Positions 363 to 23,069 of a stretch of 64,000 bases of DNA are shown piece after piece. The stretch's first letter is position 1. Every line of letters begins with the position of its first letter. The stretch spans positions 75,833-139,832 of the forward strand of contig JAFVFD010000005.1 of the NCBI GenBank assembly GCA_017475605.1, read 5' to 3'. The DNA is from Alphaproteobacteria bacterium (GTDB lineage Bacteria; Pseudomonadota; Alphaproteobacteria; Rs-D84). The position numbers and the translations under genes were made by a program. A model generated the notes under the pieces. That model was not told the DNA's origin, did not search any database, and saw only the letters and a program-made list of their open reading frames with translations.

Positions 363-3300
363 TTACAGACCGAAAGTGATACCTGCGCGGAATGCCCAAT
401 CACTTGTTCCGCCGTATGATGCACCAGCATTCAACAACACATGGTCATTAAAGTAATGGAATGCACCAACCGCGACACCTGCACGATCGGCATACGCACC
501 CGTACCGATTGATATCTGGGTATCACCGCAATCACGCGCATTTGGAACCAACGCCGTCAAAGCAGCCATTGATGCCATACCGCTGTTGACTTTCTTTTCC
601 AACTTTTCAACCTTGTGATCGACTTTCGCTATGTTGGAATCCAGGACACGTACCGCTTCGGACAAATCGGTAACAGATGCCAGGTAATTTGTTCCATCAA
701 ATGTCATATTACCAATCAAATTACCCGTTGTTTCCAATGCGGTTGCGACATCTGTTTTCGCCGCGTTATTGATAGCGGTATTAAGCGATGCCAAACTGCT
801 GCGGTCGCCGATTGCGGAATCAATCGCAGTCAGGTGTTCTTCAACCGTTGTCCCGGTGGCAAGGTTACCCTTGTATGTGCCGGCACTTTCCAACTTGGTC
901 TTTAACCCATGGATTGTCCCCAGGGTTGCGTCAATGTTATTCAATGCCGCGACAACTGTTGTTGGTGTTGTTGTACCGCCATTAGCCAGCGCATTACCGA
1001 CCGAGTTCGCATCGTCGCGCGCGTTCAACCCGCTCATATCGCCTATTGTCGCATCCAGGTTGGCAATCGCCGCGTTCAATGTTGCGCCGGATACATTACT
1101 GCCACTTGTGATGGTGTTGGTATAGGTCGCATCTTCGGCCTGATTCTTGATGGTTGCGACCACACTTGATGTTGTGGCCAACGCGGAATCAGAACCCGCC
1201 ACATTACGTGCCAGACCCGCCGTATCAATCGATGTTATGGTGCTGGTCCCCAATGTGATTGAATCGGTTGCGGTCAATGTTTTGCCGGATACACCGTTTG
1301 TTGCAGACAAAGAATCTGCTGATACTGCGCCGGTAAATGTCGCGGTTGAACCAGACAGCGCGCCGGTTACACCCAATGTGCCACCAACCGTCGCATTACC
1401 CGCAATTGTCGCCGCCGCCGCGGTCAGACCAGTCGACGTCAATGTGTTGTTCGCATCAACTGTAAATCCGTTCGCCGCCGTTACAGATGCCAATGTTGCA
1501 GCACCGTTTTCGTCAATACTGTAATCAGAGCCAAACTTTACACCCTTTTCGGCAACAATTTGTTTTTCAAATGTGTTGGTTCCTGTAAAGGTGTTGTCCG
1601 TATCTGTTCCGACCGCTGTTGTCGCGATTGTATTAACCGCATCAACCAACGACACAGTATCACCGATTTTTTCACCACTTAAGATACCGGTTGTTGCAGC
1701 GGTGGTTTGCGCGTCGCCAACAACGTTCTGTAACGCATCAACCCCTGCATCCAAATTGCTTAACGCGCCCGCGATAGTAGTTGTCGACCCGATAACCTCT
1801 TTTGATGTCAATGCATTTTGTAATTGGTTATTTACATTTTCATCAACATCAACCCCCAGCAAGTTTTCCGCCCAATCGTGTGCCTGGTTATATACCGCGG
1901 TTACACCGGCTTCAACTGTGCTTAAGGCACCGGCAATCTTGTAATCGACAGAACCGACCGTTGACGCATCGCCGTTCAAGACATCAATTGCGTCTTTGTT
2001 TGCAGCAATGTTTGTTGCATTTGTCGCAATGGCATCGGCATTTGTTTTGGCCTGGCCATCCAATGTCTTCAAAGCACCGCTAAACGATGTATCACCCCCA
2101 AGGTAATTTGTCGTTCCCAAAGCGGCCTGTAACGCATCATCTGCATCATTTGCAGTGGAATCAATACCCAACGCGGTATTCATCCATGCTTCTGCTTGAT
2201 TCCATGCGGTCGTTGCGGTCGTTGCGATATTTGCAATTGCCGCCGTATTCGCATTGATTGCCCCGGCGACAGTTTTATCCGTTACCGAAGCATCATTCAA
2301 GACATCAATTTTCATCTTGCCGGCAACCAGGTCATGTGGAAGACCGGTATTCAAATCCCAACCAAAGTCATATTGGGACATAACATCCGCACTAAGTTTC
2401 ATATACTCTGCAACTGCTTCGGCTGTGGATGCCGCCGTCAATGTTTTGCCGGCGTTCGCCCCCGTTGTCAACAGTGCGCCCAGTGCATTTCTTTTATCCT
2501 TGGCTTCGACGGATGAACCGTCAATGGTTAAAATCGCCGTGTGCAAATCTGCGGCATCGACGGTGCTTGCCACAATGCGAGCATCCGCCATGGCATTTAC
2601 CTGGTCTATCAGTCCGACACCCGTCGCCGCGCCCAACGCATGTGCAATGGAACTTGCATTATCGCCCGCCGCCATAAGGTCAGATTGAACGTTCATCAAT
2701 TTCTTGCTTAACACATCAAATGTTGTTCCAACGGTTGCAACATTTGTCGCATTATCTGCCGCCCAAGTTGCGATTTCCGCATCGGTTGGGGTAGCAGCGT
2801 CCAGATTGGCCGCCAAGTTTGTTGCGGCGGTTGTGCCCAATGTGACTTCGCCCGATTGTGCGGCACCGGTTCCGATTTTGATTCCGGTTACCGCCGTGAT
2901 ATCAACCGCCTTGGCTGCATCAGGTGTCAATGCCGTGCCATTAACCTTGACAGATTGTATCGCGCTGTCTGCCTTTGTGCCCTGGGCCGCGGATGCGAAT
3001 TCCGCCGCGTCATGTGTCACAACATCGCCATATGTACCCAATGTTGTGTTGATTGCTGCGACGTTGGTTGCGTTTTCATCAATTGCACCCTGCAATGTCG
3101 TAGCCGTCAAACCAGACGTTGTGTTATCATAATCTGCCAAACGTGCATTTGCCTTCATCCCGGATGCATTTACCAATTTATCACTAAATACCAAATTCGT
3201 TCCGTCTTTTTCAACCTTGGTATAGTAATTCATTGCACCGGTAATTTGTAAATCATCCGACAACGTGGCATCGCCCACCGCCAGTGTTATTGAATCCGCC

Positions 3301-6300
3301 GTTCCATATTCAGACGATGTAAGGTTAATCGACTTAATCGTTGAACCGGTTGTTCCCGCGAACGAATCTATTGCCGGTGTTGCACCCTTCAGGTTTGCAT
3401 CGACATACAGATTTGCATTTTGCACCGTTCCCAGCCCGGTATCGATATTGTTATTGCGCGTATCCAAAGACCCACCAATCAGCGAACCGCTGAACCCTGC
3501 GCCATTTGCCACGAATACATTGTTTGTATTTGCGGTATCGTTAAACACCGTTGTCCCGGACACCAGGTTCATTACACCCGCGCCAGTGATTGATGCACCC
3601 GATGCAAATTTAACACCGTTTTTCAAATCAACCGTTCCGGCATTTGCCAATGTCGCGGTTGCGCCAAATGTATCGTTATCAAATTCGGCGGTTGCGCCGG
3701 CGACATTATTAACCGTTCCCGCATATGTAGTCGGGTCAGATTTCAACACACCAAAGTTATTAACATTTACACCGATAAATGAATCTTTGATGTTAAGGGT
3801 TGCGCCCGCCTTGTTCACGATATCGGACGAACCAGTAAATTTAACATCGTTCAACGACAACATGGCATTTTCAGAAACGTTCAAATCTTTCTGTAATTCG
3901 ATTGCAAAACCGTCGGCACCGGTTCCAGTAATTCTGAAATCAGAATTATCGATTGAATCATCTGAATCGAACACTTCATTTTCTGTAACGGTATAGTTCA
4001 ATGCCAAACGCGCACCGTCTGCATCGGTTGTTTCGACCGCGGTGTTAATACCGCCGGCGAAACCACGAACAATCATTTGACCGTCCGCCACACCCGATGA
4101 GTTGAATGTCACACCGGTATCAGATGTAAATATTGCCTCGGCAATATCAACGGTTGTGCCGTCGGACACGACCTGGAATGCCTTTTCGCCCGTGCCAATA
4201 TCACCGTTCAGCAGATTTCCAACATAGTATTTAACCGTTCCAGCGGCGGACGCATATTTATCGGCGGTTCCGTTATTCCAGTCAATATCGCCCTTGATTC
4301 CCGCGCCATCGGCCAGGGTAATATTGGACGACAAATCTTGGATAGCATCGTCAATAGTGTTAATAATCGCACCCGACGCGACATTGATGGTTGAACCTGT
4401 CAAATCGGCATTTGTCAAATGCAGTTCACCGGAATTCACATCGACGGTGTGCTTCTTTAATGTATTTGCGATATTGGTGGTTCCTGCACCATTGATATAT
4501 AACTTTGAACCTGCAACACCATCAAATCCACCAGCAAAGGTGTTTGTTTCACCCGCGCCAGAGATAATATTTATTGTTCCCATATTATTGTAAATATCAT
4601 TTGCAGTGGATGCGGTTATATTACCATTTTCTTCATCCCACGTTACATCAGATTTGTTTCCACTGAATGTGTTTGAACCATCAAATGTAATTGTTTTGCT
4701 TGCAGCATTAAAGATTGCACCACCCTTTTCCTTTGCAATATTGTTGGTAAATGTCGCATCTTTGATATTCAACGTATCAAGATTACGAATTGCACCACCA
4801 CCAATAACTGATGATGTTTTCGAAACCCCTGATGCTACGTTTCCGTTAAAGGTTGTGCCATCTATATTAAGGGTCCCTTTGTTGTTATATATTGCACCAC
4901 CAGTCGCTGCCACGTTCTGCGAAATACTACCACCGGTTATGGTTGAGGTTTTTCCACTAGTGCTGTTATAAATCGCACCACCATTACCGGTCGCACCTGT
5001 TCCTGCCGGCACAAGACCTAAACCTTCAACAACATAAATCGGTGCATCATTTTTAATACCACTGTTATTATCTATTGTTGCGTTGTTTATTGTAAATCCA
5101 TTACCACCATTAACCCAAATAACACCAGAACCACCGGTTGATGCATTACCGGTAATTTCAGTTCCGTCAATACTCAAACTGCCTGATGCTACATAGATAG
5201 CACCGGCTTTATTTGCCATATTGTCGGTAATGGAACCACCGCTGATTTCCAATGTTCCGCTATTGTTATAAATCGCACCGCCGGTACCCGTTTTCATAGT
5301 TTCAGTATTACCATCAACAAGCTTACCGTTGCCGGTAAACGTATTGTTTGTTAACGTCAATTTACCAGAACCGTTATAAATCGCACCACCCGATCCACCT
5401 GTGGAAGATTTTCCGGTATAGTTACCCGAAAATGTTGTATTTGATATTTCGGCATCAACAGTTGCATTGTTTTGAATTGCACCACCATTTGTTGCCACTG
5501 TATTACCAGTAAATATCGAATTATCAATGGTTAATTCACTGGTACCAAGATTTGTAATTGCACCACCATTTGTTGCGGTATTATTTTCAAATTTTGCATA
5601 ATCAATGTCCAAACTGCCGCCGGTTGCAGCGAAAATAGCACCACCGGCGCCACTAAACTCACTGCCTTTAAACGATGCACCTTTTGTTGCATTGACTGTC
5701 AACCCAGCACCCGATGCAATATTTGTCCGACCGGTTGATTTTAAACTCTCGCTGACGGTCATATCACCACTGTTAATTGTCAAGCCACCCGCACCAACAG
5801 CCAGGTTTTCAACCTCTATACCGTTTGCACGATTAACAACAACATTACCACTGTTAACATCCAGATTCTTTAATGCTGTATAATAGCGTCCATTTGTTGC
5901 AACGCCTGGTTCCGCCGATTCTGCGACTTCTGTTGCGGTCCATGTTGCACCATCCGTCATCTTAATCGTTGCACCGTGATTGATTTGCAATTTATCATCA
6001 CTTGGTTTATCCTCATAACTTAGCACCGTGTTTCCGGTCCAGTAAGATTCCGCACCATTCAATGTCACATTAACCGTTGCATCAACAGGTGCCCCCGAGT
6101 TTGGCCCTTGTCTAAAATCTATATCGCCGTCCATTTTGACAGTTTTATCACCGGCGGCATTGATATTGGTTACAGAAAGACCAGATGCATAAATGGCATC
6201 TTTGCCCTTGATGGTTGCATTACCGTTAATATTTACGCGCCCCTCGCTAAGAGCAGCAATTGCAGACGCATTCAAATTCGTTAAATTGATTTGATTCGCA

Positions 6301-6827
6301 GTTAAATTAACCGTTGCATAGGTATCTGTTTGCCCTGGATCAGAGCTGTTTTGAACCCACAACGCACCATACCCAACACCACCATCATAAGCTGGGTCAT
6401 TAACAGTTGATGTAATGGAAATTGTGTCATTCGCACGCACATCAACAACACTTTTTGTCCGAACAAGAATACCATCACCACCCGTGTTGATATTAATGGT
6501 GTTTGTGTTATCGCCCCCCAAATGCAACAGTGTCGGTTCAGTGGCACTATACACGGCATTTTTACCGATTTCAATTGCACGTCCATCACCAGGTTCCGTA
6601 ACACTTATATTTTCCGCCAACCATGTAACATTTTGATTACCAGTATATTTAAAAGAACCCGCTGTCCCTGTTGGATATAATTCATCCAATGACACATTTG
6701 TGTATTCAGCCATTGCGGGCGCGGTTGCGATTAAACCCAGTGCGATTGCGTTACACAAAATGCCATGACGTAAAACTGCGCGATACATAGCGGTCAATTC
6801 TTTCAGTACGGTTCTGGTTTGTTTCAT
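363..6827 (-). CDS. Trimeric autotransporter adhesin (YadA-like C-terminal anchor) with many GGAI(Y/F)N repeat modules
   Basis: Single 2154-aa ORF. RBS AAAGGAGAG lies 5 nt upstream of the ATG. The N-terminus MKQTRTVLKELTAMYRAVLRHGILCNAIALGLIATAPAMA looks like an extended signal peptide region. The passenger carries more than 12 GGAIYN/GGAIFN/GGAIQN repeats (Pmp/pectate-lyase-like beta-helix motif) plus a long Ala/Thr-rich stalk. The C-terminus has a coiled-coil (KVDHKVEKLEKK) and ends ...ISIGTGAYADRAGVAVGAFHYFNDHVLLNAGASYGGTSDWAFRAGITFGL, typical of a YadA-type 4-strand membrane anchor. Confidence 0.75.
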   Translation of the reverse strand: MKQTRTVLKELTAMYRAVLRHGILCNAIALGLIATAPAMAEYTNVSLDELYPTGTAGSFKYTGNQNVTWLAENISVTEPGDGRAIEIGKNAVYSATEPTLLHLGGDNTNTININTGGDGILVRTKSVVDVRANDTISITSTVNDPAYDGGVGYGALWVQNSSDPGQTDTYATVNLTANQINLTNLNASAIAALSEGRVNINGNATIKGKDAIYASGLSVTNINAAGDKTVKMDGDIDFRQGPNSGAPVDATVNVTLNGAESYWTGNTVLSYEDKPSDDKLQINHGATIKMTDGATWTATEVAESAEPGVATNGRYYTALKNLDVNSGNVVVNRANGIEVENLAVGAGGLTINSGDMTVSESLKSTGRTNIASGAGLTVNATKGASFKGSEFSGAGGAIFAATGGSLDIDYAKFENNTATNGGAITNLGTSELTIDNSIFTGNTVATNGGAIQNNATVDAEISNTTFSGNYTGKSSTGGSGGAIYNGSGKLTLTNNTFTGNGKLVDGNTETMKTGTGGAIYNNSGTLEISGGSITDNMANKAGAIYVASGSLSIDGTEITGNASTGGSGVIWVNGGNGFTINNATIDNNSGIKNDAPIYVVEGLGLVPAGTGATGNGGAIYNSTSGKTSTITGGSISQNVAATGGAIYNNKGTLNIDGTTFNGNVASGVSKTSSVIGGGAIRNLDTLNIKDATFTNNIAKEKGGAIFNAASKTITFDGSNTFSGNKSDVTWDEENGNITASTANDIYNNMGTINIISGAGETNTFAGGFDGVAGSKLYINGAGTTNIANTLKKHTVDVNSGELHLTNADLTGSTINVASGAIINTIDDAIQDLSSNITLADGAGIKGDIDWNNGTADKYASAAGTVKYYVGNLLNGDIGTGEKAFQVVSDGTTVDIAEAIFTSDTGVTFNSSGVADGQMIVRGFAGGINTAVETTDADGARLALNYTVTENEVFDSDDSIDNSDFRITGTGADGFAIELQKDLNVSENAMLSLNDVKFTGSSDIVNKAGATLNIKDSFIGVNVNNFGVLKSDPTTYAGTVNNVAGATAEFDNDTFGATATLANAGTVDLKNGVKFASGASITGAGVMNLVSGTTVFNDTANTNNVFVANGAGFSGSLIGGSLDTRNNNIDTGLGTVQNANLYVDANLKGATPAIDSFAGTTGSTIKSINLTSSEYGTADSITLAVGDATLSDDLQITGAMNYYTKVEKDGTNLVFSDKLVNASGMKANARLADYDNTTSGLTATTLQGAIDENATNVAAINTTLGTYGDVVTHDAAEFASAAQGTKADSAIQSVKVNGTALTPDAAKAVDITAVTGIKIGTGAAQSGEVTLGTTAATNLAANLDAATPTDAEIATWAADNATNVATVGTTFDVLSKKLMNVQSDLMAAGDNASSIAHALGAATGVGLIDQVNAMADARIVASTVDAADLHTAILTIDGSSVEAKDKRNALGALLTTGANAGKTLTAASTAEAVAEYMKLSADVMSQYDFGWDLNTGLPHDLVAGKMKIDVLNDASVTDKTVAGAINANTAAIANIATTATTAWNQAEAWMNTALGIDSTANDADDALQAALGTTNYLGGDTSFSGALKTLDGQAKTNADAIATNATNIAANKDAIDVLNGDASTVGSVDYKIAGALSTVEAGVTAVYNQAHDWAENLLGVDVDENVNNQLQNALTSKEVIGSTTTIAGALSNLDAGVDALQNVVGDAQTTAATTGILSGEKIGDTVSLVDAVNTIATTAVGTDTDNTFTGTNTFEKQIVAEKGVKFGSDYSIDENGAATLASVTAANGFTVDANNTLTSTGLTAAAATIAGNATVGGTLGVTGALSGSTATFTGAVSADSLSATNGVSGKTLTATDSITLGTSTITSIDTAGLARNVAGSDSALATTSSVVATIKNQAEDATYTNTITSGSNVSGATLNAAIANLDATIGDMSGLNARDDANSVGNALANGGTTTPTTVVAALNNIDATLGTIHGLKTKLESAGTYKGNLATGTTVEEHLTAIDSAIGDRSSLASLNTAINNAAKTDVATALETTGNLIGNMTFDGTNYLASVTDLSEAVRVLDSNIAKVDHKVEKLEKKVNSGMASMAALTALVPNARDCGDTQISIGTGAYADRAGVAVGAFHYFNDHVLLNAGASYGGTSDWAFRAGITFGL

Positions 6828-6862
6828 TGGGACTCTCCTTTCTTCACCTTGACGAATATTTT

Positions 6863-7186
6863 TTATTTTTTGTTATTGGTTGGTTGTGCCGGCTCGGTCT
6901 GAACACGACAGAGTGATATTGCCGACGAAATTGTTTGTGCAGATGCCTCGTCCACAAATTCCATTATGTTGGTTGTGGGACGCGTCTTCATTGAATTTAA
7001 AAACTTGTTAAATGCGCGAACCTGGTCATTGCTAAGGCGGTTATCAACAATGTTCGCAAAACATGCGCAATCCATTCCCGCGCCACATTGTTTCTTTAAA
7101 CTGCTGCGCGCACGCGAATCGGTTGTTGCAACGAAAAACACCGCGCCCAAAACGCATATACCCCCCAGGATATAAGCCCCGCGCAG
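6863..7186 (-). CDS. Hypothetical small membrane protein (start uncertain; may instead be 5' leader of the adhesin gene)
   Basis: Open frame with a plausible TM segment ILGGICVLGAVFFVATT and codon-like composition. The N-terminal third of the tool ORF (7300-7417) is encoded by a palindromic repeat element and is probably not coding. No convincing RBS was found. Confidence 0.2.
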   Translation of the reverse strand: MRGAYILGGICVLGAVFFVATTDSRARSSLKKQCGAGMDCACFANIVDNRLSNDQVRAFNKFLNSMKTRPTTNIMEFVDEASAQTISSAISLCRVQTEPAQPTNNKK

Positions 7187-7340
7187 CAATATTTTATTAT
7201 CTATTTGCAATTGCTTTCCCCCATGTAATAAGAATTCTTTCGATGATTTAAGATAGCACACAAAAAACCCGGTGCAACATTTTTTGTGTCTATACAACGC
7301 ATTTTTGGGGGACTTAGGAAAACAAACCCAGGTTTTGTCC

Positions 7341-7499
7341 ATACCACCAAAAACCGCTACCCCGTCGGCATTCGCCGACACCCCTTCGCCAGACGAAGGG
7401 GATTTAATCCCCTTCACATCGTGAATGGGTGGATTGCGAACAATGTGAGCAAGACGGGGTAGTTACCTGCCCCCGTACGCAGTTATGATACCACCAAAA
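7341..7499. repeat. Palindromic dispersed repeat element, copy 1, flanked by the 12-bp direct repeat ATACCACCAAAA
   Basis: Direct repeats at 7341-7352 and 7488-7499. Inverted repeat CTACCCCGTC (7357-7366) pairs with GACGGGGTAG (7453-7462). Inner hairpin CCCCTTCGCCAGACGAAGGGG at 7381-7401. The core CTACCCCG...CGCC(A)CCCCTT-N6-8-CGAAGGGGA recurs at 22919-22964. Confidence 0.5.
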
Positions 7500-7564
7500 G
7501 GTTCCTATTAAAAATCGCACGCCTTGTACGCATAATAAAAATATAACAATTGGGGGGAAATAAT

Positions 7565-8644
7565 ATGAATATGAAATACTTTGCCGCAACAATTGTCGGC
7601 ATTTTGGGAATCGCACATTACGCAGATGCATGTACGGGTATTACCCTGCGCGCGAAAAACAATGATATGGTTGTCGCACGAACTGTCGATTGGCATGGCG
7701 ACGAAATGAATAACATGTATGTAATTGCGCCACGCGGACACACACAAAAATCTTTGACCCCGGACGGCAAAATGGACGGCCACGAATTCACATCGGTATA
7801 TGGCTATGTTGGTATTGCGGTCCAGACACCAGATTTTGTAATCGATGGCACGAACGAGGCCGGACTTTCCGCAGGGTTATTCTATTTCCCTGAATATGGT
7901 GAATACCCCTGGTATAATAAAAATGATAAAGAAAACAGCATTGCGGACTTTGAATTGGTGGCGTGGATGCTGTCGCGGTTTTCAACCATCGACCAAATCA
8001 AAGAAGCCATCAAAGATATTACCGTTACCAATATCGACCCGTCTGCTTCAACGGTGCATTGGCGCATCACCGACGCGACCGGCAAACAGGTTATCCTTGA
8101 ATTCATTGATGGCGAGGCGCATTTTTACGACAGCAAGGTCGGCGCGATTTCGAATTCGCCGGGCTATCCATGGCACATTACAAACCTTAATAACTATATA
8201 AACCTGGAACCCGGGACCAGCAATCCAAAAAAACTGGGCGATTTTACATTGCGACCATTTGGCTCTGACAGCAAGATGCTGGGCCTGCCCGGCGACTTTA
8301 CACCGCCATCGCGATTTATTCGTGCCGCGCTGTTAAGCAACTATTCCATACCGCAAAAGGACGGTTATGAATCTGCGATGAAGGCGTTTCATATCTTGAA
8401 CAACCTGGACGTGCCGTTGGGGGTTGAATTTGATTCCGGCCGCGCAACAAACAATATGCCGTCCGCAACACAATGGACAATCGCAACCGATTTGGGCAAC
8501 CGGGTTATTTACTATCACACGATGTATAACCGCACAATCCGTTCTATCGATATGAAGAATATTGACTTTGCGAATGTCCGGTTCCAATACGCGCCCCTGG
8601 ACACAGCCAAGGTACAAACGATTATTCCAATAAAAGTAAAATAA
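7565..8644 (+). CDS. Secreted choloylglycine-hydrolase / linear-amide C-N hydrolase (Ntn-hydrolase) family protein
   Basis: Signal peptide MNMKYFAATIVGILGIAHYADA is followed directly by Cys (CTGITLRAKNND...ARTVDW...YVIAPRG), the N-terminal nucleophile arrangement of bile-salt hydrolase / penicillin V acylase. RBS GGGGGGAAA lies before ATG 7565. The tool start at 7550 is a TTG. Confidence 0.65.
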   Translation: MNMKYFAATIVGILGIAHYADACTGITLRAKNNDMVVARTVDWHGDEMNNMYVIAPRGHTQKSLTPDGKMDGHEFTSVYGYVGIAVQTPDFVIDGTNEAGLSAGLFYFPEYGEYPWYNKNDKENSIADFELVAWMLSRFSTIDQIKEAIKDITVTNIDPSASTVHWRITDATGKQVILEFIDGEAHFYDSKVGAISNSPGYPWHITNLNNYINLEPGTSNPKKLGDFTLRPFGSDSKMLGLPGDFTPPSRFIRAALLSNYSIPQKDGYESAMKAFHILNNLDVPLGVEFDSGRATNNMPSATQWTIATDLGNRVIYYHTMYNRTIRSIDMKNIDFANVRFQYAPLDTAKVQTIIPIKVK

Positions 8645-8703: not shown

Positions 8704-9942
8704 ATGAAAATTAAACCATTTCGGGGTATTCGCCCACCACGCGAACTGGCAGAAGAAGTCGCATCGCGTCCGTATGATGTTCTGAACTCTGCCGAAGCAA
8801 AAGCCGAGGCCGGCGAAAAATCATTACTGCACATTATAAAACCAGAAATCGACTTTGACCCAATTGCCGGTGAACACGAACAGCGCACCTATGACAAGGC
8901 CGTTGAAAACTTCAAGAAATGGCAGGACAATGGTTGGCTGGTCGCGGATGACCGGGAAATGTATTATATCTATGCCCAAACAATGAACGGCCGCACACAA
9001 TATGGCCTGGTTGCCGCCGCGAATGTTGACGACTATATGACCGGCAAAATTAAAAAGCACGAATTGACACGCAAAGAAAAAGAAGATGACCGCATGATTC
9101 ACGTGCGTATTCAAAACGCGAATTTGGAACCTGTGTTCTTTGCGTATCCAGATGTAGATGAAATGAATAAAATTGTTGCGGACTTTGTTGCGAACAACGC
9201 GCCCGAATACGACTTTGTTGCGCCGGACGGTTTCGGACACACATTCTGGGCAATTCGCGACGATGCAATAAATGCACGCATAACCGAAATCTTTAAAAAC
9301 ATTCCGGCAATGTATGTCGCCGATGGCCACCATCGTACCGCCGCCGCCGCACGTGTTGGCGCGGAAAAGCGCGAACAAAACCCGAACCACACCGGAAATG
9401 AAGAATACAATTATTTCTTGGCTGTGATTTTCCCATCGTCGCAATTGCACGTTATCGACTATAACCGCGTTGTGCGCGATTTGAACGGTTTAACAAAAGA
9501 AGAGTTCTTGAACAAGCTGTCTGAATCATTCGACGTTACCGAAATGGGTGCCGATATTTACAAACCAAACAAATTACATAACTTTGGAATGTATCTGGGC
9601 GGGAAATGGTATTCGTTAACCGCGAAACCCGGCACATATAATGACAGCGACCCGATTGGTGTTCTGGACGTAACAGTGTTATCGAACCTGGTGTTTGATA
9701 AAATCTTGAACCTGGGTGATTTGCGCACCAGCGCCCGCATCGACTTTGTCGGTGGTATTCGCGGCCTTGGCGAATTACAGAAACGTGTTGATTCCGGTGA
9801 AATGGTGGCGACATTTGCGCTGTACCCTGTTACAATGCAGCAAATTATCGATATCGCCGACACCGGCAACATTATGCCACCAAAAACAACATGGTTTGAA
9901 CCAAAATTGCGCAGTGGTTTGGTTATCCACAAATTGTCATAA
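8704..9942 (+). CDS. DUF1015-family protein
   Basis: N-terminus MKIKPFRGIRPPRELAEEVASRPYDVLNSAEAK matches the M-x-I-x-PF-x-G-x-RP...PYDV signature I recall for DUF1015. Strong RBS AAAGGAG. 413 aa. Confidence 0.55.
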   Translation: MKIKPFRGIRPPRELAEEVASRPYDVLNSAEAKAEAGEKSLLHIIKPEIDFDPIAGEHEQRTYDKAVENFKKWQDNGWLVADDREMYYIYAQTMNGRTQYGLVAAANVDDYMTGKIKKHELTRKEKEDDRMIHVRIQNANLEPVFFAYPDVDEMNKIVADFVANNAPEYDFVAPDGFGHTFWAIRDDAINARITEIFKNIPAMYVADGHHRTAAAARVGAEKREQNPNHTGNEEYNYFLAVIFPSSQLHVIDYNRVVRDLNGLTKEEFLNKLSESFDVTEMGADIYKPNKLHNFGMYLGGKWYSLTAKPGTYNDSDPIGVLDVTVLSNLVFDKILNLGDLRTSARIDFVGGIRGLGELQKRVDSGEMVATFALYPVTMQQIIDIADTGNIMPPKTTWFEPKLRSGLVIHKLS

Positions 9943-9945
9943 AAG

Positions 9946-9972
9946 AAACCGCCCAAACGGGCGGTTTTTATT
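9946..9972. terminator. Bidirectional rho-independent terminator
   Basis: ACCGCCC-AAAC-GGGCGGT hairpin (9948-9965) followed by TTTTTATTTTGTTTTT on the + strand and preceded by an A-run. It sits between the convergent genes ending at 9942 (+) and 9968 (-). Confidence 0.6.
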
Positions 9973-10375
9973 TTGTTTTTGCCTTATAGTTTTCAATATA
10001 TTTACGATAGTTTGGATCTTCTGTATATTTGGTTATATTGAATTTATCCATTTTGTGTAATCTGTTTGCGATTTGTCGCGCAGATGACGACACACCATGC
10101 CCTATGTGCGCACGAAAAATAATTTGCGCTGGAACATATTTATGACTTTTGTGCATACGTGGTTCAAAACCCATGGCACGCACAATCTCGAACGACTTGG
10201 CATCCATTTGTTCAAAGTAAACATACGGCTGTCCGTTGCGCGCACGCACAACTTCTGGAACCATGTCAAAAATATCGACCAACAATGCCGCATCAAAGTC
10301 CGCATTGTGCCGAAAATTATTTGGCAATTTTATCTCTGGTTTAATAATACTTTTTAAGCATTCTTTTATTGTCAT
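9968..10375 (-). CDS. Hypothetical protein (about 135 aa)
   Basis: ORF with internal start MTIKECLKSIIKPE at 10375, preceded by AAGGTG. No recognisable family. Confidence 0.4.
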   Translation of the reverse strand: MTIKECLKSIIKPEIKLPNNFRHNADFDAALLVDIFDMVPEVVRARNGQPYVYFEQMDAKSFEIVRAMGFEPRMHKSHKYVPAQIIFRAHIGHGVSSSARQIANRLHKMDKFNITKYTEDPNYRKYIENYKAKTK

Positions 10376-10444: not shown

Positions 10445-13400
10445 CTAGATTCCCACCCGATGTGTCAATTTCATCATAAAGATGGACTCATTACCAAATT
10501 CATCTGTATTATTTGGATTTACCCGATAAATGAAGCCCAACGCGCCGTCTGTAAACGCGCCAAAGTTATGGCGATATTCCGCATTGAATCGCAATTCCCG
10601 TTTATCCGCACTTAAATCTAGTTCCGCGATATGTGCATTCGCAATATCAAGTGCAAAATTACCATCATCGGTATCAACAATATGATAGTCGGCATACGCA
10701 TATTGCAGCGCACCATGCCGCACCGCCAATGGTTGCGCAACACTTAACCGGAAATTACCAATTTCGGCACCAATTCCAAATGCGTTTGATTCAAGTTCTG
10801 ATACCCCCAGGACAAAGTCCCCCGCCCCATCGGTTGTTGTGCGCGCAAATGTCGCACGCGCGGTAAGTGTAAAATTATCAAATGGACGAACACGCAATTC
10901 ATTATCAACATATATCGTTTCACCCGCACCCATATCAAGCAAACCATTCGTATATGCCCCCAAAACAGTATCCGTTTCGTTCACCGCACCAACGGTTGTA
11001 TCAAACCCAAAATATTTACCACGCCATGCAACATTTGCACCCGCACCACGTACCAGGCCCAACCGCGCCGGCGCATAATTTGCCGCTATTGTTGGGTCAT
11101 GTTCCAACAAAGATTCATCAGTTACCGCACCTGAAAACGCGCGCGCACCAAACGACCATTTACCGAAATTATATTCAGCATCCGAAATAACTGCATTTGA
11201 CGCAAGGTTCAAAATCGGATTGCTCATCCCTGAAAAACGCGACACCCCGTCGGTAAGATGCCGCTGATACCCCGCTGCCATATTCCAATTACCCGTTGTC
11301 CAATCTAATTTCATATTATCCAATCCGCCCATATTGTCATTATAGGCACGCGGTGATACCGCCATTGAAAAACCAAGTTTCCCCATCTGAATCCGATTTT
11401 CATCCGCATCATGCGTTTTCAATTCGCCCAACACATCGCCCATATAAAGTCCATGCCTTGAATTCGTCCCCAGTGCGAATTCATTTGTCCAAACACGTGG
11501 CAACGACAATTCACCATCAACACTGGTCAACACATCAAATGCCGATGTCCGTAATGTTGCATTACGCGCACCAAATGCCGACGACGACATAAATGCTGTA
11601 TTAGATGCCGCCCGCCAATACGCATTACCGGCATCTGACACAATATCGGTTCCATTATAATAGAAAATATTTTTCCCCGGTGTTGTTGCGCGTTCAACAT
11701 TGATTAACCCGTAACCAAATACTTCCTTGAACGCATCAAGATAATCAAGATTTCCAGCATTCACCATATACTGATATTCATTTGGCAATTCATACATACC
11801 CTGTAGATACGATTTCAAGTCATCTTTTGTAAATGTGGTACCCGATTCATTTGTTCCCAAGTACGCACCATCGGCGGTCAATGCCACCAGCGCAAATATT
11901 TGTTGATTTGTCAGATACGGAAAGGCCGACTTTACCGCCCCAAATGCACCTGCGGCACTTGCCACCGCTAATTCATCGGTAACACCCGCCGCGGCAAAGC
12001 ACCATGGGTCAATTCCGTTTGCCCCCATACCCCCAACACCACACATACGCGCCCGATAATATGTATCATCGGTTGTGTCCGGCGTATTATTTGTATTTTG
12101 CCATTGTGCCAAAATATATTTATTATTCGGCGAATAACCGGAAACAGTTGATGTTCCATTGGTCCCTGTCCCCTTTTGTCCAACGGCAACAATGGACGCA
12201 AATAAATGTTCCATATTCGCACCGTATACCAGCGGTGCCGCATTTTCAAAAGTCGCAACCCGCGCCACCCCAGAATATGCCGCATCCGTTGTTACCCCAC
12301 CGGTTGAAAACAGGACCAATGGTGAATAAGACGAACCCAGCCCACTGAAAAACTGTTTTGCTATCGCCCCCTGGGTACTGGCTGTTGAATCGGCATTATA
12401 ATATTTATTCACATATAAAGAAAATTGGTTTTGATAATCTTCTGATGTTGTTGCGGATATAGACAACAAATCGTCAATGGTCGCTGTGTCCGTCGCATAC
12501 AAAGGTGTAATCACCGATGCATTTGCTAATATGTTTGGACGCGACCGCCCCATTGTAACATCACCCGCGGTGTACAATGCCGCCCCCGCCAACAATGCCC
12601 GATAATTATAATAGTCAATAGTATTTCCGTTATTATCAACGCCTCCACCCGTTCTAAAAATTGTCATTTGTCCGTTTGGCATAAATCCCATAAAGTCGGC
12701 AGTAGACCCTGTTGTAACGGAACCCGCCACCACCTTGGCCAGCAAATTATCCATATCGGTTGCCGATGTATTGTTTATCGCGGTGCCATTACCCGATAAA
12801 TCAAACGACGCGACCAACGTCGAATCTTCCGATGTAGTATCATCGGTCAATGTTCCGGTGTCTGTGCCATAGGTTATCTTGTTATTATAATATTTGCTGG
12901 AAATCATATTGTTGGACGCGGCATTCACTTCTGTTCCGTTGTTATTAAGTGTTGTCCATGGCATCAATTTATCCGCCAATGAAGTATCATCCGCGGCATT
13001 GATACCATTTGCGGTAATTAACGCAACATTTATCGGTCGGCCCCCCAACACAGGTTCTGTTCCCAAATTATTTCCACCGATATTCAACGGTGCATCGGTT
13101 GATTTATTGCGTAATGTTGACATACCCATATATCCGCGTGCGAATGCCGAATAGCCACGCATCATAAGCAGGTAATTTTGCCCATATGTATTTGTCATTA
13201 AATTAAAGTTTTTATATAAAATACTGTCTGTATCAGATGGGCTGTATAAATCCAGCGCATTTGTATAATTATAATCTTCCGCCAATGATGCCGGGCCATC
13301 TGGCAAAGTAAATGCCGCGGTTGCATTTGTCGAACCACCGCCACCATTGTTGCCACCACCATGTGATCCAGACGAAGAAGAAGATTTATTATCGTTTCCC

Positions 13401-13825
13401 GGATCCAACCAATCGGTTAACAAAAACAGCCCCCCAACGATAACGGCGGCCCCCGCCGCCGTTAATGTTATGCTTTGGGCAGAAGATAACCCGCCGAATA
13501 ACCCACCACTGCTGCCGGTTGGTTTATTCCTGGAATTATACTGCTTAATCTGACGGTCGCACTTTGATGCATCGGCACCATACATTTGTAATATTTGCGC
13601 GGCCCGAACATCGTTATTCATTAACGCGGTACACACCAACGACAGCCCAGTTGAATCAACATAATTTACGTTTGCGCCATTGTTGATAAGTGCCTGCACC
13701 TGCTGAATATCGGCATTTTTAGCCGCAGACAACAACTGTGCCGCAACCATAAATTCATTTGTTGCACCAAACGAAACCGCCGGTATCAAGAACAATAAAA
13801 AGCCGAAAACTCGCATAAATCTCAT
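10445..13825 (-). CDS. Secreted ankyrin-repeat / subtilase-like (S8-fold, probably catalytically degenerate) protein with an autotransporter-like C-terminal beta domain
   Basis: Signal peptide MRFMRVFGFLLFLIPAVSFGA. Ankyrin repeats (AAKNADIQQVQALINNGANVNYVDSTGLSLVCTALMNNDVRAAQIL). The segment ...AGAFGAVKSAFPYLTNQQIFALVALTADGAYLG...GYGLINVERA resembles the subtilisin Ser-motif region and C-terminal GYGL(I/V)N, but the GTSMA, HGTH and DTG catalytic motifs are not recognisable. The last ~300 aa show alternating amphipathic beta-strand character. Confidence 0.55.
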   Translation of the reverse strand: MRFMRVFGFLLFLIPAVSFGATNEFMVAAQLLSAAKNADIQQVQALINNGANVNYVDSTGLSLVCTALMNNDVRAAQILQMYGADASKCDRQIKQYNSRNKPTGSSGGLFGGLSSAQSITLTAAGAAVIVGGLFLLTDWLDPGNDNKSSSSSGSHGGGNNGGGGSTNATAAFTLPDGPASLAEDYNYTNALDLYSPSDTDSILYKNFNLMTNTYGQNYLLMMRGYSAFARGYMGMSTLRNKSTDAPLNIGGNNLGTEPVLGGRPINVALITANGINAADDTSLADKLMPWTTLNNNGTEVNAASNNMISSKYYNNKITYGTDTGTLTDDTTSEDSTLVASFDLSGNGTAINNTSATDMDNLLAKVVAGSVTTGSTADFMGFMPNGQMTIFRTGGGVDNNGNTIDYYNYRALLAGAALYTAGDVTMGRSRPNILANASVITPLYATDTATIDDLLSISATTSEDYQNQFSLYVNKYYNADSTASTQGAIAKQFFSGLGSSYSPLVLFSTGGVTTDAAYSGVARVATFENAAPLVYGANMEHLFASIVAVGQKGTGTNGTSTVSGYSPNNKYILAQWQNTNNTPDTTDDTYYRARMCGVGGMGANGIDPWCFAAAGVTDELAVASAAGAFGAVKSAFPYLTNQQIFALVALTADGAYLGTNESGTTFTKDDLKSYLQGMYELPNEYQYMVNAGNLDYLDAFKEVFGYGLINVERATTPGKNIFYYNGTDIVSDAGNAYWRAASNTAFMSSSAFGARNATLRTSAFDVLTSVDGELSLPRVWTNEFALGTNSRHGLYMGDVLGELKTHDADENRIQMGKLGFSMAVSPRAYNDNMGGLDNMKLDWTTGNWNMAAGYQRHLTDGVSRFSGMSNPILNLASNAVISDAEYNFGKWSFGARAFSGAVTDESLLEHDPTIAANYAPARLGLVRGAGANVAWRGKYFGFDTTVGAVNETDTVLGAYTNGLLDMGAGETIYVDNELRVRPFDNFTLTARATFARTTTDGAGDFVLGVSELESNAFGIGAEIGNFRLSVAQPLAVRHGALQYAYADYHIVDTDDGNFALDIANAHIAELDLSADKRELRFNAEYRHNFGAFTDGALGFIYRVNPNNTDEFGNESIFMMKLTHRVGI

Positions 13826-17820: not shown

Positions 17821-20800
17821 ATGAAAAAATTATTGATTGCTTTTTTATTTATCGTATCTGTAATACCGGCGGCATTTTCCGCACAGTCTGATGTGTATTC
17901 ATGTGGTATTGCGTCATCCGCTTCTGCACCGAATATAGTTCCCGCAGACAATTGTATTCCCCAGGATATTTTACGGGACTATCGTGTTATCAAGGGAACC
18001 GTTGTCAAGGCAAAAACAGATTCCAGGGAAAAGGTCGAACTTGTTTCCATACGTTTTACCCCGAAAGATAAATCTCAATCAAAAGAATTAATGTTCATCG
18101 CCAGCCCACATTTCGCATTTTATATCAAGAAAGGTATAGATGGTGATATTTCTTTTACTGCCGATGGATATCAAACACTTATATTACACCCACGTGATTT
18201 TGATGAAACCATGGGACGTTATGTTGAAATGGTACCCCAAAGTGCAGCCCCAACCACTACAGCACATGCTGTTGAAAGTCCAACAACACCAACATCTACC
18301 CCTGAAGCAAATAAAGCTGCAACCAGCACAACGCGCACACGTGCATCTACGCGTTCAGGTTCTACGCCACCAACAAATGGCGGTTCTGCCACTACCGCAA
18401 CAGTACATAAAAAAATTAACGGCAAGATTATCGAAGGTGACACAAAATTACCCGCTATTGGCGCATACGTTACCCCACGTGGTGTCAAATCGTCCCCGTC
18501 TAATTCGGGTATAGCCGATGAAACAGGTGCTTTTCATATTGAAATGTTCCCTGCAAACACCGACGCAGAGGTGTCGTATATGGGGTACACAACAAGAATA
18601 GTTTCCGCATCACAAATGAATGATGGGATGAATATTACACTTCAGCCATCTACAGAAACTTTGGACAAGGCGGTCCTTTCCATTGTTGATTGTGGCAAAG
18701 AAAAGCGTGCAGAATTACACGCACTTACAGCCGAAGTATTAAACAACACAACGTGTATTCCAACATCTTGTGAAAATGGTTATATTTTGGAAAAACCTAA
18801 AAACATTGATGCAAAATGTACATCTTGTACAGGTCGTGTTCCCCTGGCCCGCACAGTAACAGTTGAAAACAACCAATGTGTTCCTGACAGATGCGAAACA
18901 AACCTGGTACGCGTTGGCAATCAATGCTTGGTCGATTGTGATAAATTCAAATCTAAATTAAATGCCAAGACGGTAACACGAAAGACCCCCGGGCCAACAA
19001 CTATTGCCCCAAACAATGACTATTCTTCATTTTGTAACATAGAAAGTTGTATAAACCATTCTTTCAAAAAAATTGATAATCAGTGTGTCTTACAAACAGA
19101 CAAAGAATGTGATGATGTCGCCAAAAACATTAAATATGCATCGCCAAAAGGTAAATATATATACGATCGCAAGACCGATACTCTTATCTGCATTCCGGAC
19201 TCTTGTACAGCAACGGGATATGTTGTTAATAAGACTACTGGTCAATGCGAATTAAAAGATAACAATTGCCCTGCTGAAATCTTGGAAAAGATGGATCCAA
19301 ATGCATCGGCGGGCAGTATAAAAGAACGTGACCCCATCACAGGTGTTGCCAAAACATGCGAAATTACAGGGTGTAATAATTCCATGACCCCTAATTCCAA
19401 CGGCACCAAATGCGTCAATTCGCAATGTGGCTGCGGTCAAACTTGGGATTCAACAAAAGATGAATGTGTGTCAAAAACCGAAAGAACATGCAGTGTAAAA
19501 AATGTAAAACACGCAAAGCCGTCTGGAAAATTACAATGCCAAAACACAACAAGCATGGCATTGTCTGACGCATGCGACAAGAATACTAGTTGTAAAGAAA
19601 TCTGTGCTGTTACAGAATGTGAAGACGATTACAAATTAAACCAACAAAACAATTCTTGTGATGTTCCAACCGGTGAATGCGATTTTACTGGCGACAAACA
19701 ATTCGCCAAAGACAAAGGTATTTGGAAAGAAAAATCAGGTGTGTTGGTTTGTGAACCCATCTGTAATGGCACAAACTATGAACTTGACTGGAACCCCCAA
19801 GAAAAGAAGTATAACGGTTGCAAAGTTAAATATTGTCCATGTGGTTCAATCTTGGATGACTCGACAAAGTCTTGTAAAACATGGGCCGAACTTGGTAAAT
19901 CTAACTGCGACCCGATGCCGACTGGCGCAACAGCGGCCACCCGCAGTTGTCGCGATAATTCCAGTGGTGTCGAAACCACCAACTGTGCCGACGGTACATG
20001 TACAGAATTCTGTAAGATAACCGCGTGTGATACGGCCGCCGGATATATATTAAAGGATGGCACATGTGAATCTCAGGTTGGCAAACCATGTACCGCCGAG
20101 CAATTGCCAGAAAACGCGGTGGCGGGAACACAACGCGAAAACAATGGCAAGATAGAATGTGTTATCAGCAAATGCGCCAACGGATTTGAGGTTCGCCCTG
20201 ATGAATTGTCCTGTGCACCCAAAATGGTATTAAGTCCGGAACAATACCAAGATGAAATCGCCGAACTGGCCGACAACGCACAAAAAATGCATGAACGTGA
20301 AACATCGTTGGAAAATCGTATATTGGGCGCGGCGGGAATTGGCGCAACGGGTATTGGTGGTACAATGATTGGCGGCGCATTGGCCGAACGTCGTGCGGAC
20401 GATGATGCGGAACGCGCAATGCGTGCATATCTGGAAACATTCCATTGCGATTATGGTAATGGTACGAATGTAAAGGGTGGCGAAACAAATGTCGAATTAC
20501 CGGGCGGTAACGATATGATTGGCCTTTACACCGAATACGCACAACTTGCCAATGATTTAAAGATTCGCAAGGAAGCCCTGGGCCTTCGTCCCGGCATTGA
20601 ATCCGAGGTTGTTATTGACAAGGCCGAAACAGGTTTATACGAATACAGCAATAACGGTATTACCGGTGGAACGTACGCATCTATCGCACGTGCCCTGCTG
20701 AACCCAGACGGCGAAGATGCAAAGATGTGGGCCGCGCAACGCGCCGCCACCGACAGCAAATTAAAAACAGGTGCAATTGTCGCCGGTGTTGGTACGGTGG

Positions 20801-21828: not shown

Positions 21829-21857
21829 CCCCCGCCCATTTGGGCGGGGGTATTTTA
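21829..21857. terminator. Bidirectional rho-independent terminator
   Basis: CCCCCGCCC-ATTT-GGGCGGGGG followed by TATTTTAT, between the convergent genes ending at 21810 (+) and 21855 (-). Confidence 0.6.
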
Positions 21858-22610
21858 TGGGTTGTAATAACAACTGCTTGTAAATTGAAAATTACCAATA
21901 TTATCGTGCAGTGTATAGTTCCCTGGTATATAACACTCATTTATGGCAGAGGCCCCTGCCCCTATTGTTGTTCCAACCGCTGCATCAGTGCCACTTGTTC
22001 CAGCATAAAATGTTGAAGATATCGGACATCGACTGCAAGAATTATTATTTAAATAATATCCTTGTACACACACAAAATTCGGCCCACCTGGACAACCAGC
22101 ATTATCAGGACACGCATTACACCGCGGGTCGTCCATTGAACTGGCTATTCCGTAATACCCAGATGCACATCTAAACTCTACTATTGTATTACATGTGCCA
22201 CAAATACATGTTTTTCTTTGTCTCATTTGAATGTGATACGAATTAGCCGGTGTCCAGTCTGAATCGGAACAATTTGTACAAGATGCCGAAGGGCACCCGC
22301 AGGTTTTATAAATATTCGTTGACGAATATTCACATCCATCATCTGTATAAGTTACATCCGTTAACACTTGACCTGTATTACATGATGTGCAACTTTGTAC
22401 AGGACGAAAAGCCACGCTACCACTGCCATCGTAATTTGGATTAACAATAAAGTATATTGTTTCCGATGTTTTACAATTACTGCCAGTTATTATTGTTGAA
22501 AGTACATAAGAAGAATCGGGCCTGGTTTTTGTATTTGTACATGTTTGTCCATAAGCGTTAGTAAGTGTAACAAATATTATACTAGATGTGATTAAACAGT
22601 TCCTCTTCAT
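21855..22610 (-). CDS. Secreted cysteine-rich protein with eukaryote-like furin/EGF-type Cys repeats (C..GYY..C..CP)
   Basis: Signal peptide MKRNCLITSSIIFVTLTNAYG. 30 Cys in 230 aa. Motifs CASGYYGIASSMDDPRCNACPDNAGCPGGPNFVCVQGYYLNNNSCSRCP. Confidence 0.5.
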   Translation of the reverse strand: MKRNCLITSSIIFVTLTNAYGQTCTNTKTRPDSSYVLSTIITGSNCKTSETIYFIVNPNYDGSGSVAFRPVQSCTSCNTGQVLTDVTYTDDGCEYSSTNIYKTCGCPSASCTNCSDSDWTPANSYHIQMRQRKTCICGTCNTIVEFRCASGYYGIASSMDDPRCNACPDNAGCPGGPNFVCVQGYYLNNNSCSRCPISSTFYAGTSGTDAAVGTTIGAGASAINECYIPGNYTLHDNIGNFQFTSSCYYNP

Positions 22611-22647
22611 TGTGTTTCCCCTTCCCTTTGTGTTTCCAAGCGACCGA

Positions 22648-22760
22648 TTTAAAACGGTGGTTTTGATTCGGCTATTTTTGCCGTTGACAAAGTCCCGGAA
22701 AACCGAATAAAATAGGAATAATTAAGAGGCCGATTTTAAACCACCGTTTTAAATCGGCAA
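22648..22760. repeat. About 110-bp palindromic (MITE-like) element with an embedded promoter-like and terminator-like arrangement
   Basis: 20-bp inverted repeat CGACCGATTTAAAACGGTGGTTT (22650-22672) pairs with AAACCACCGTTTTAAATCGG (22738-22757). Inner TTGACA-17-ATAAAA (22685-22713) on the + strand is followed by hairpin GCCGATTT...AAATCGGC and a T-run. Confidence 0.35.
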
Positions 22761-22914
22761 CTTTTATTTTATGCAACACATTGTGTTTACGGCATAATCC
22801 GCCGATTTTTTGTTTTTAATTTTTTGTGTTTTTTCTTTGTCATTGCAAGCCTGCGAAGCAATCCACAAACCCGTTAGATTGCCACGGTCGCTATGCTCCA
22901 TCGCAATGACAAAC

Positions 22915-22995
22915 ACCACTACCCCGGCTCGTTTCACTCGCCACCCCTTAGCATGCGAAGGGGAATTACTGAACTCTGCCCCCCATCGCCCCACC
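22915..22995. repeat. Palindromic dispersed repeat element, copy 2 (homologous to 7353-7470)
   Basis: CTACCCCGG (22919-22927) and CGCCACCCCTTAGCATGCGAAGGGGAATTA (22939-22967) align with copy 1. It is preceded by the inverted repeat TGTCATTGC (22839-22847) / GCAATGACA (22905-22913). Confidence 0.45.
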
Positions 22996-23032
22996 ATATT
23001 ATGTTGACAGGAAACACGACATTGCTTGTACT

Positions 23033-23062
23033 AAAAAACCGCCCGTATGGGCGGTTTTTATC
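23033..23062 (-). terminator. Rho-independent terminator for the autotransporter gene
   Basis: AACCGCCC-GTAT-GGGCGGTT hairpin with flanking A-run and T-run. The gene's stop is at 23070. Confidence 0.6.
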
Positions 23063-23069
23063 AAGAACA

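Follow-up and report, generated by a model that had tools for sequence, protein, structure and literature searches.

The 64,000-nucleotide (nt) stretch of alphaproteobacterial DNA analyzed here (contig JAFVFD010000005.1, positions 75,833 to 139,832; hereafter the window) carries related palindromic sequences in two places, and the question they raise is what kind of element they are and what could have spread them. The first-pass annotation, made from the letters alone, had described them as two copies of a dispersed palindromic repeat: copy 1, bounded by a 12-nt direct repeat, and copy 2, ending at position 22995. We show here that the two copies consist of three two-hairpin units, which are gene-less, decaying and strain-polymorphic members of a family that occurs in many phyla. 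The complete form of this family is, with fair probability, a mobile cassette around a gene of the DUF559 endonuclease family, with single units and unit pairs as its non-autonomous derivatives.

Alignment of copy 1 to its own reverse complement and to copy 2 revealed two inverted versions of a sequence that is present only once in copy 2. Copy 1 is not the single element it had been taken for, but a dimer of two units, which meet tail to tail at a 5-nt centre (GGGGATTTAATCCCC). Copy 2 is one solitary unit and is shorter than had been drawn (Table 1). The smaller details of the earlier description hold. The core CAAAcACCaCTACCCCG, CACCCCTT, CGAAGGGGA is common to both copies in the same order, the 12-nt repeat (ATACCACCAAAA) is exact, and around copy 1 the 10-nt sequence CTACCCCGTC (7357-7366) is the exact reverse complement of GACGGGGTAG (7455-7464). 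Unit 2 is degenerate; it retains CCCATTCAC-GAT-GTGAAGGGG together with a long, decayed hairpin 1 (TTGCTCAC..TTCGCAA).

All three units fit the family definition used throughout, which is a head (C)CAC(T/C)ACCCCG, hairpin 1 and CACCCCTYC-loop-GRAGGGGA-WTT, scored with a covariance model, R1. The three were part of the training alignment of R1; independent units score 40-77 bits. With its filters switched off, R1 found no further unit elsewhere in the window. The similarity is above chance, since CCCCTT-N7-CGAAGGGGA with up to two mismatches occurs five times in the window against 0.08 expected and CTACCCCG three times against 0.54 expected. The sequence is also not the AT-rich DNA that had been presumed; the GC content of the window is 0.41-0.48. 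The suggested folding check gave a clear result for copy 1: as RNA, 7341-7499 folds at -61.5 kcal/mol (z = -5.4 against shuffled sequence), and as DNA, 7345-7474 reaches z = -5.2 on the plus strand and -3.4 on the minus strand. Unit 3 alone, which has lost hairpin 1, folds as DNA like shuffled sequence (z = -0.45).

The structure of the unit was derived from 115 distinct copies. It is about 55 nt long and comprises an A/T-rich leader, ACCA, CTACCCCG, hairpin 1, CACCCCTTCG-loop-CGAAGGGGA and a tail (A/C/T)TT; conservation ends outside the leader and the tail. The commonest form reads ACCACCCCG, hairpin 1, CACCCCTCC-N-GGAGGGGAAT. The window form, CTACCCCG/CCCCTTC, is a subtype, and head and hairpin 2 switch together between the subtypes (11 cases against 0). 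A scan of one genome per species for the exact pattern CTACCCCG-N14-24-CACCCCTT-N4-10-CGAAGGGGA matched at least 119 stretches, from genomes labelled as at least seven phyla. The dispersed hairpin-repeat family that had been postulated is hence genuine and extends well beyond two copies. The labels among the matches listed are Rickettsiales and other Alphaproteobacteria (including Candidatus Enterousia), Gammaproteobacteria, Francisella, Caedibacter, Bacteroidota, Ignavibacteria, Kapaibacterium, Flavobacteriales, Chitinophagales, Gracilimonas, Deferribacteraceae, Spirochaetia/Treponema and UBP14. The conserved genes of the window itself are 76-80% identical to those of Candidatus Enterousia and of rumen alphaproteobacterial metagenome-assembled genomes. 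In 60 of the fetched loci R1 recognized about 155 full-length units, which are arranged as singletons, head-to-head pairs, tail-to-tail pairs and arrays. In the Rickettsiales genome Hs463_bin75 (L006, L016, L040, L102) heads-out pairs recur with a conserved spacer of 40-60 nt and with outer termini TATACCAC...; they look like a form resembling a miniature inverted-repeat transposable element (MITE), with the same geometry as copy 1 of the window.

Next we analyzed the covariation of the hairpins. Hairpin 1 covaries strongly even though the search pattern had left it unconstrained. RNAalifold on a MAFFT alignment missed this hairpin, which varies in length, and the structure was therefore entered by hand for R1. 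The pairs 25-44 and 26-43 of hairpin 1 occur in all four Watson-Crick types, with 86 double changes (CG 22, AU 20, UA 16 and GC 13 for one pair; GC 31, UA 19, AU 10 and CG 8 for the other). The covariation score is 0.215; shuffles give 0.044, and slid partners no more than 0.055. The second pair of hairpin 1 is mostly a conserved T.C mismatch. In hairpin 2, compensatory changes turn CG into TA at positions 6 and 7, and wobble pairs are absent. Overall, wobble pairs are no more frequent than other mismatches (none in the hairpin 1 pairs; 2 TG in about 600 and 0 in about 900 pairs). The units are structured at the level of DNA.

The search for a partner gene gave one answer. When the open reading frames (ORFs) of the 119 repeat-selected loci were clustered, the only family with units at both ends in three or more genomes was a protein of about 125 amino acids (aa), which matches Pfam DUF559 (PF04480) with E = 4e-32. 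The partner is an endonuclease gene and not a transposase, a point that the first-pass annotation had missed. A survey of PD-(D/E)XK proteins groups DUF559 with Vsr and with a Vsr-like homing endonuclease (PMC3424549). In four loci (L038, L034, L075, L111) the DUF559 gene lies between two inverted units with their heads inward, and translation runs on into the unit that shares the strand of the gene, which supplies a C-terminal tail, ...HYP....HPFA(S/C)EGD*.

Sampling by protein alone was used to remove the selection on the repeat. Among the best 120 DUF559 homologues, 40 carry a full unit-encoded tail (HPFASEGD, TPSPDEGD, TPPEEGN...) and 21 a partial one, while seven start with a peptide encoded by the inverted unit (SPSLAKGW..DGVV). 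A metagenome scan with a domain-trimmed alignment and the patterns Q[KR][IV]IGNYI and [LV]V[ILV]E[IV]DGxSH returned 80 loci, 76 of them with enough flank. In these 76 loci R1 placed an inverted unit ending at most 170 nt upstream of the gene in 61 cases and a direct unit starting at most 170 nt downstream in 55, with both present in 48; the controls for the wrong orientation gave 12 and 13. An independent detector based on the hairpins placed a unit upstream in 57 loci, downstream in 66, on both sides in 50 and on neither side in three; the background density is 0.34 units per kb. In 11 of 51 cassettes the two units carry the same hairpin 2 with the same loop, where 1.6 such cassettes would be expected. 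The cassettes have a median length of 467 bp and end in AATT-CCCC...GGGG-AAT(T), and all aligned proteins share the catalytic-type residues D53, E64, D66, H70 and K73. The units are, as these loci show, the inverted termini of DUF559 cassettes. Degenerate hairpins also occur on both sides of the DUF559 gene ycjD of E. coli K-12 (L210, NC_000913.3, 1351040-1351830), one of them over the start, with a degenerate CCCTCTCCC...GAGGGGG and TCCCCTCGCCCCTCTGGGGAGAGGG downstream. In the literature searched, no paper links DUF559, COG2852 or PF04480 to repeats or mobility, or MTES_1575 to repeats; searches with unit sequences and unit-encoded peptides yielded no such link either.

The manner of insertion was analyzed by comparing the left and right flanks of 53 complete cassettes, with other units masked and with flank-swapped controls. 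About five cassettes carry a clear long duplication, far above the 99th percentile of the controls (score 23). In L038 both ends of the cassette are abutted by a perfect direct repeat of 53 nt (reverse strand, 5616-5668 and 6126-6178), which comprises the final 17 codons and the stop codon of alaS. In the related genome L107 (7790-7860) alaS encodes the same C-terminal peptide, ...SSGIRRITMSVGTLAE*, and runs straight into its terminator without a cassette. These two loci are a filled and an empty version of one site, and the duplication encloses the units and the gene together. Further duplications measure 42 nt in L196 (95% identical, covering the start codon of the next gene and its ribosome-binding site), 42 nt in L034 (88% identical) and 28 nt in L186. 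The cassettes thus enter the target as one block and leave long duplications. L083 has a single unit at the site that holds an entire cassette in L034, which shows one origin of solo units. In L186 (634-1290), just ahead of the fpg start, the DUF559 gene is flanked on both sides by a block in which a downstream unit, a 28-nt spacer and an upstream unit follow one another; the arrangement reflects either a partial tandem or insertion into a unit pair that was already present.

A survey of one DUF559 protein, P0038, did not find it in varied contexts; all 22 contigs with P0038 share one context. These contigs (L211-L219 among them) end about 300 nt 3' of the gene, in one case 198 nt. L211, the P0038 contig that was read, ends after a tRNA gene within a repetitive extragenic palindromic (REP) sequence of the TGTC type, which suggests that the assemblies probably break at such REPs.

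We then compared the window loci with those of related strains. Copy 1 lies in a 740-nt gap between a trimeric-autotransporter-like gene (363-6827, minus strand) and a gene of the choloylglycine-hydrolase family (7565-8644, plus strand). Sister alleles came from contigs with orthologues of the hydrolase at 97-87% identity; contigs with an identical protein represent the same strain. The unit pair is present in the window, L120, L207 and L208. The L207 pair is nearer to the consensus, with a CCA-CTACCCCG head and with GAAGGGG in unit 2, which indicates that copy 1 of the window has acquired extra mutations. In L201, likewise with a hydrolase at 97% identity, the place of the pair is taken by 228 nt of unrelated sequence, a mosaic of CGTC-type REPs, and the difference from L201 defines the variable block of Table 1. 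L202-204 have a degenerate unit and one REP at this site, and L205, L206 and L209 merely 12-20 nt. The right-hand boundary, from TTCCTATTA onward, is common to all alleles, as is the flank just 3' of the block with the promoter-like site.

The same alleles bear on the six-frame ORF that overlaps copy 1, the N-terminus of which had been suspected to be either an artefact or an in-frame insertion of the element. An artefact is the better description. The gene called on L207 and L208 encodes 132 aa and corresponds to 6863-7261 of the window, the sister contigs call only this 132-codon ORF, and the L201 allele diverges from position 7331. Both window loci are intergenic and the overlap is a product of ORF extension, not of an insertion into a gene. 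Copy 2 lies downstream of the terminator of the gene for a 1731-aa autotransporter. An empty site for copy 2 was not obtained; only identical contigs exist for this locus, and the adjoining protein has no homologue besides itself. The hairpins that abut unit 3 have a TGTC tag, a stem start ATTGC...GCAAT and a CCA tail on degenerate stems. They fit a different family, the REPs tagged CGTC or TGTC, which are defined by this tag, a single stem of 8-9 bp that starts with two A-T pairs, a loop of 4-5 nt and a CCA tail (PMC3733652).

Table 1. Positions of the repeat units and of the features around them in the window.
Feature	Positions	Strand	Details
Unit 1	7345..7414	+	R1 covariance model, 65.2 bits, E = 2.8e-15
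Unit 1, head CTACCCCG	7357-7364	+	
Unit 1, hairpin 1		+	GTCGG-CATTCG-CCGAC
Unit 1, hairpin 2	end at 7401	+	CCCCTTCG-CCAGA-CGAAGGGG, then tail ATTT
Unit 2, inverted, tail to tail with unit 1	7396..7474	-	R1, 42.3 bits
Unit 3, solo (copy 2)	22907..22976	+	R1, 52.4 bits
Unit 3, head CTACCCCG	22919-22926	+	hairpin 1 decayed; hairpin 2 = CCCCTTAG-CATG-CGAAGGGG
12-nt direct repeat ATACCACCAAAA, left copy	7341..7352	.	exact
12-nt direct repeat ATACCACCAAAA, right copy	7488..7499	.	exact
Strain-variable block, 171 nt (unit pair and both 12-nt repeat copies)	7331..7501	.	alleles on contigs with hydrolase orthologues
Promoter-like site TTAAAA-17-CATAAT for the choloylglycine-hydrolase-family gene	7508..7536	+	consensus match only
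Spurious 5' extension of the six-frame ORF 6863-7417	7262..7417	-	called gene = 6863-7261
Inverted pair of TGTC-ATTGC...GCAAT-CCA hairpins abutting unit 3	22836..22913	.	DNA fold z = -3.9

The reading that we favour starts from the complete element, which consists of two inverted units with their tails outward (AATT-CCCC...GGGG-AATT) around a DUF559 gene of about 120 codons that encodes a Vsr-like PD-(D/E)XK protein, about 470 bp in all. The cassette inserts in one piece and duplicates a long target stretch of variable length. Solo units and pairs may arise through loss of the gene, as the comparison of L083 with L034 suggests, or may spread in trans; they would pile up together with other REP types at permissive intergenic spots, such as the one upstream of a promoter at copy 1 and the one downstream of a terminator at copy 2. 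The units presumably act as DNA hairpins, either extruded or single-stranded. The DUF559 nuclease could recognize and nick the folded units and in this way drive mobility, with nicks in the two target strands that would lie tens of bases apart, and it could act on gene-less units in trans. Recognition of hairpins by DUF559 is suggested by the T.C mismatch of the upstream-type units and by the left/right asymmetry, both of which are of the kind that hairpin-binding enzymes use. The window units would have no function for the host.

Several observations weigh against this reading. A tblastn search for a DUF559 gene in the 64-kb window matched only the unit-encoded peptide at 22924-22965; no gene lies between the units of copy 1, and the heads of this pair, on either side of its short centre, point outward, the reverse of the cassette arrangement. 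Clear long duplications are limited to the five or so cassettes mentioned above. The plasmid collection contained no match to the unit and the phage collection two weak matches to DUF559. The similarity of the DUF559 proteins does not correlate with unit subtype (p = 0.27), hence there is no signal of co-evolution. The only solved relative of DUF559, 3HRL, is an uncharacterized Neisseria protein from structural genomics. At the window locus itself, the 12-nt repeats had been interpreted as a target-site duplication. They do bound copy 1, but their copies do not adjoin the unit ends and are separated from the inverted repeats by 4 nt on the left and 23 nt on the right. The left copy reads TTACCACCAAAA in L207 and L208, so that the match in L207 is only 11/12, and the alternative allele L201 has neither copy. 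The proposed comparison with empty sites did yield sister alleles, including nearly empty ones, but none of them carries a single ATACCACCAAAA. On the other side, such a repeat is rare by chance (its score of 24 was reached by 0.5% of flank-swapped controls from 229 unit clusters, p ~0.005) and complete relatives do duplicate their targets. A further point against it is that the repeat starts with ATACCAC, the sequence with which heads-out pairs of other genomes end on the outside. A target-site duplication, as in the cassettes, is plausible.

The alternatives differ in what they take to be the driver. One is that other machinery, or host recombination or replication slippage at the hairpins, spreads the units and that DUF559 is a trapped passenger or an addiction gene. 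Gene-less units do far outnumber cassettes; for example, the Rickettsiales genome Nl494_bin11 has dozens of units in 24 loci and no DUF559 gene, unit subtype tracks the lineage of the host and not the clade of the protein, and heads-out pairs like that of the window are not derivable from a cassette by simple deletion. Against this, the units keep a constant orientation and position relative to the start and stop codons in 48-50 of the 76 independent genes, and units and gene are enclosed by a single target duplication. The five invariant residues also suggest that the nuclease has been kept functional. We therefore regard a passenger role as unlikely, although it retains some weight. We give less credence to the possibility that these are classical REPs with a GTAG tag, mobilized by a REP-associated tyrosine transposase (RAYT), an IS200-like Y1 enzyme, with copy 1 as a doublet of the REPIN type. 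The window subtype indeed ends in GGGGTAG, the units are extragenic, and their inverted doublets, clusters and head-to-head or tail-to-tail pairs resemble bacterial interspersed mosaic elements (BIMEs), an organization also found in the REP literature (PMC3733652). The majority of the family, however, ends in GGGGTGG. On the strand concerned the tag of the unit is 3' of the hairpins, and the tag of E. coli REPs is 5' of the hairpin. In addition, REPs are usually specific to a species or genus while the unit sequence is common to several phyla, and in the 119 loci only DUF559 recurs beside the units and no transposase-like ORF does, although no search was aimed at Y1.

An RNA-level element, i.e. 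a terminator, an mRNA-stabilizing hairpin, a small RNA or a regulator in the 5' untranslated region of the choloylglycine hydrolase gene, is the least probable of the explanations considered, and we attach very little weight to it. The predicted RNA fold of copy 1 is strong, and the direct unit of a cassette is situated at the 3' end of the mRNA, where hairpin 2 is followed by AAUUU. But Rfam contained no family at the gathering score for the window and 12 repeat-rich loci (best score 19.9 bits against a threshold of 58.6; sub-threshold noise at E <=10 on 6800-7600), a scan found no terminator-like site at the units, both strands fold, and wobble pairs, as described above, are not enriched. 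Transcription of copy 1 is improbable, given its place between divergent genes and upstream of the promoter-like site, and sister strains with the same downstream gene lack the element or have other sequence instead of it. Retron msr/msd, integron attC and tRNA-derived elements were also considered and rejected, since neither a reverse transcriptase nor an integrase nor a tRNA lies nearby.

The early assignment to a REP- or MITE-like kind without coding capacity is supported, but the unit family, which works like a REP or a MITE, does not fully match any of the families with which we compared it. Like REPs, BIMEs and REPINs with their RAYTs, the units are short imperfect palindromes with a conserved unpaired tag, which occur as extragenic singletons, inverted doublets and clusters; as in a 'REPtron', inverted copies of the repeat stand on either side of a partner gene, and recognition would be of DNA hairpins. 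In contrast to REPs and REPINs, the unit has two hairpins in 46-55 nt, its sequence is conserved across phyla, the bracketed gene encodes a Vsr-like PD-(D/E)XK endonuclease (PF04480) and not an HUH Y1 transposase, and the cassettes carry long target duplications. RAYTs and elements of the IS200 type are not known to make such long duplications.

The CGTC-tagged REPs, which include the cores of Rickettsia RPE-4 and RPE-6 and Neisseria dRS3, are mostly alphaproteobacterial, often dimeric and 'apparently lack a dedicated transposase' (Di Nocera et al. 2013, PMC3733652). In many units, hairpin 1 has the form CGTC-stem-loop-stem-(G)CCA, with the same tag and tail, and the units form dimers as well. 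Units 1 and 2 of the window have this tag (CCCCGTC). In the unit, however, hairpin 1 is GC-rich and variable (4-9 bp) and is always followed by a second hairpin, CCCCTYC...GRAGGGG. MITEs such as the Correia/NEMIS elements of Neisseria and the QMITEs of Coxiella are likewise non-coding, carry the terminal inverted repeats of a coding relative, are intergenic and strain-polymorphic and may have a target duplication. The window units are non-coding, and their inverted repeats are homologous to those of a coding relative, given that R1, built from window-type units, matches the flanks of 61 and 55 of the 76 DUF559 genes. The differences are that the autonomous relative is not an insertion sequence with a DDE or other transposase, that the orientation of the window pair is opposite to that of the cassette, and that the duplications are long and variable (12-53 nt, if the 12-nt repeat is one of them) instead of a fixed 2-10 bp.

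Free-standing homing endonuclease genes, among them those of the Vsr-like EDxHD family (I-Bth0305I; PMC3239194, PMC2677866), resemble the cassette as tiny selfish genes for a lone nuclease with a Vsr or PD-(D/E)XK fold. Homing endonuclease genes lie in introns or inteins or target one conserved site, are copied by repair and have neither inverted terminal hairpins nor target duplications, whereas the sites of DUF559 cassettes are numerous and unrelated to one another (after alaS, before fpg, after gap). The Rickettsia palindromic elements (RPEs), finally, are palindromes of Rickettsiales-like Alphaproteobacteria that can be translated into protein, and the unit, too, supplies the C-terminal tail and N-terminal extensions of DUF559 proteins. 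Unlike RPEs in genes, both window copies are intergenic and not inserted in frame.

In its strongest form the proposal is that the DUF559 cassette is a previously undescribed minimal mobile element, in which a Vsr-like nicking endonuclease recognizes the two-hairpin ends and makes widely staggered nicks that result in duplications of 28-53 bp, while the gene-less units form a REP-like population across phyla of which the window holds three relics. We put this forward tentatively, as a possibility that falls short of an even chance. If true, it would provide a role for DUF559, a very large family without a known function, and a candidate for the 'missing enzyme' of palindromic repeats that lack a transposase, such as the CGTC-type REPs at the same intergenic sites. 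If the nuclease is the driver, a tiny selfish element would have a new way of moving. Of wider interest is the fact that DUF559 genes are very regularly bracketed by inverted two-hairpin units and that some of them were inserted as a block. The repeats of the window are probably inert relics of low importance in this genome. They matter for its annotation, since they cause a false ORF extension and mark a strain-variable spot close to a promoter.

A few other features of the window were recorded. A 29-nt inverted repeat (22644-22672 and 22729-22757, 90% complementary) surrounds a promoter-like site, TTGACA-18-TAAAAT (22684-22713), upstream of the gene for a Cys-rich protein (21855-22610). Hairpins of the form AAAAACCGCCCG-N3-GGGCGGTTTTT with A and T runs on both sides occur at 9942-9974, 23032-23064, 37379-37411, 43660-43692 and 44684-44716 and are likely bidirectional intrinsic terminators. 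In the same-strain contig L120, 17 nt inside a DUF1015 gene (9667-9683) are missing, which splits the gene call; a frameshift variant and an assembly error are the two possible causes. Around 47.5 kb, a comparison with L104 and L042 found hairpin mosaics in these relatives and no clean filled/empty pair. The stretch 44000-48000 has a GC content of 0.35-0.38, compared with about 0.43 elsewhere in the window, and may be foreign DNA. Four very large predicted surface proteins are encoded within 28 kb (363-6827, 10445-13825, 17821-21810 and 23070-28265), namely a YadA-like trimeric autotransporter of 2154 aa, autotransporter-like proteins of 1126 and 1731 aa and a Cys-rich OmpA-like protein of 1329 aa.

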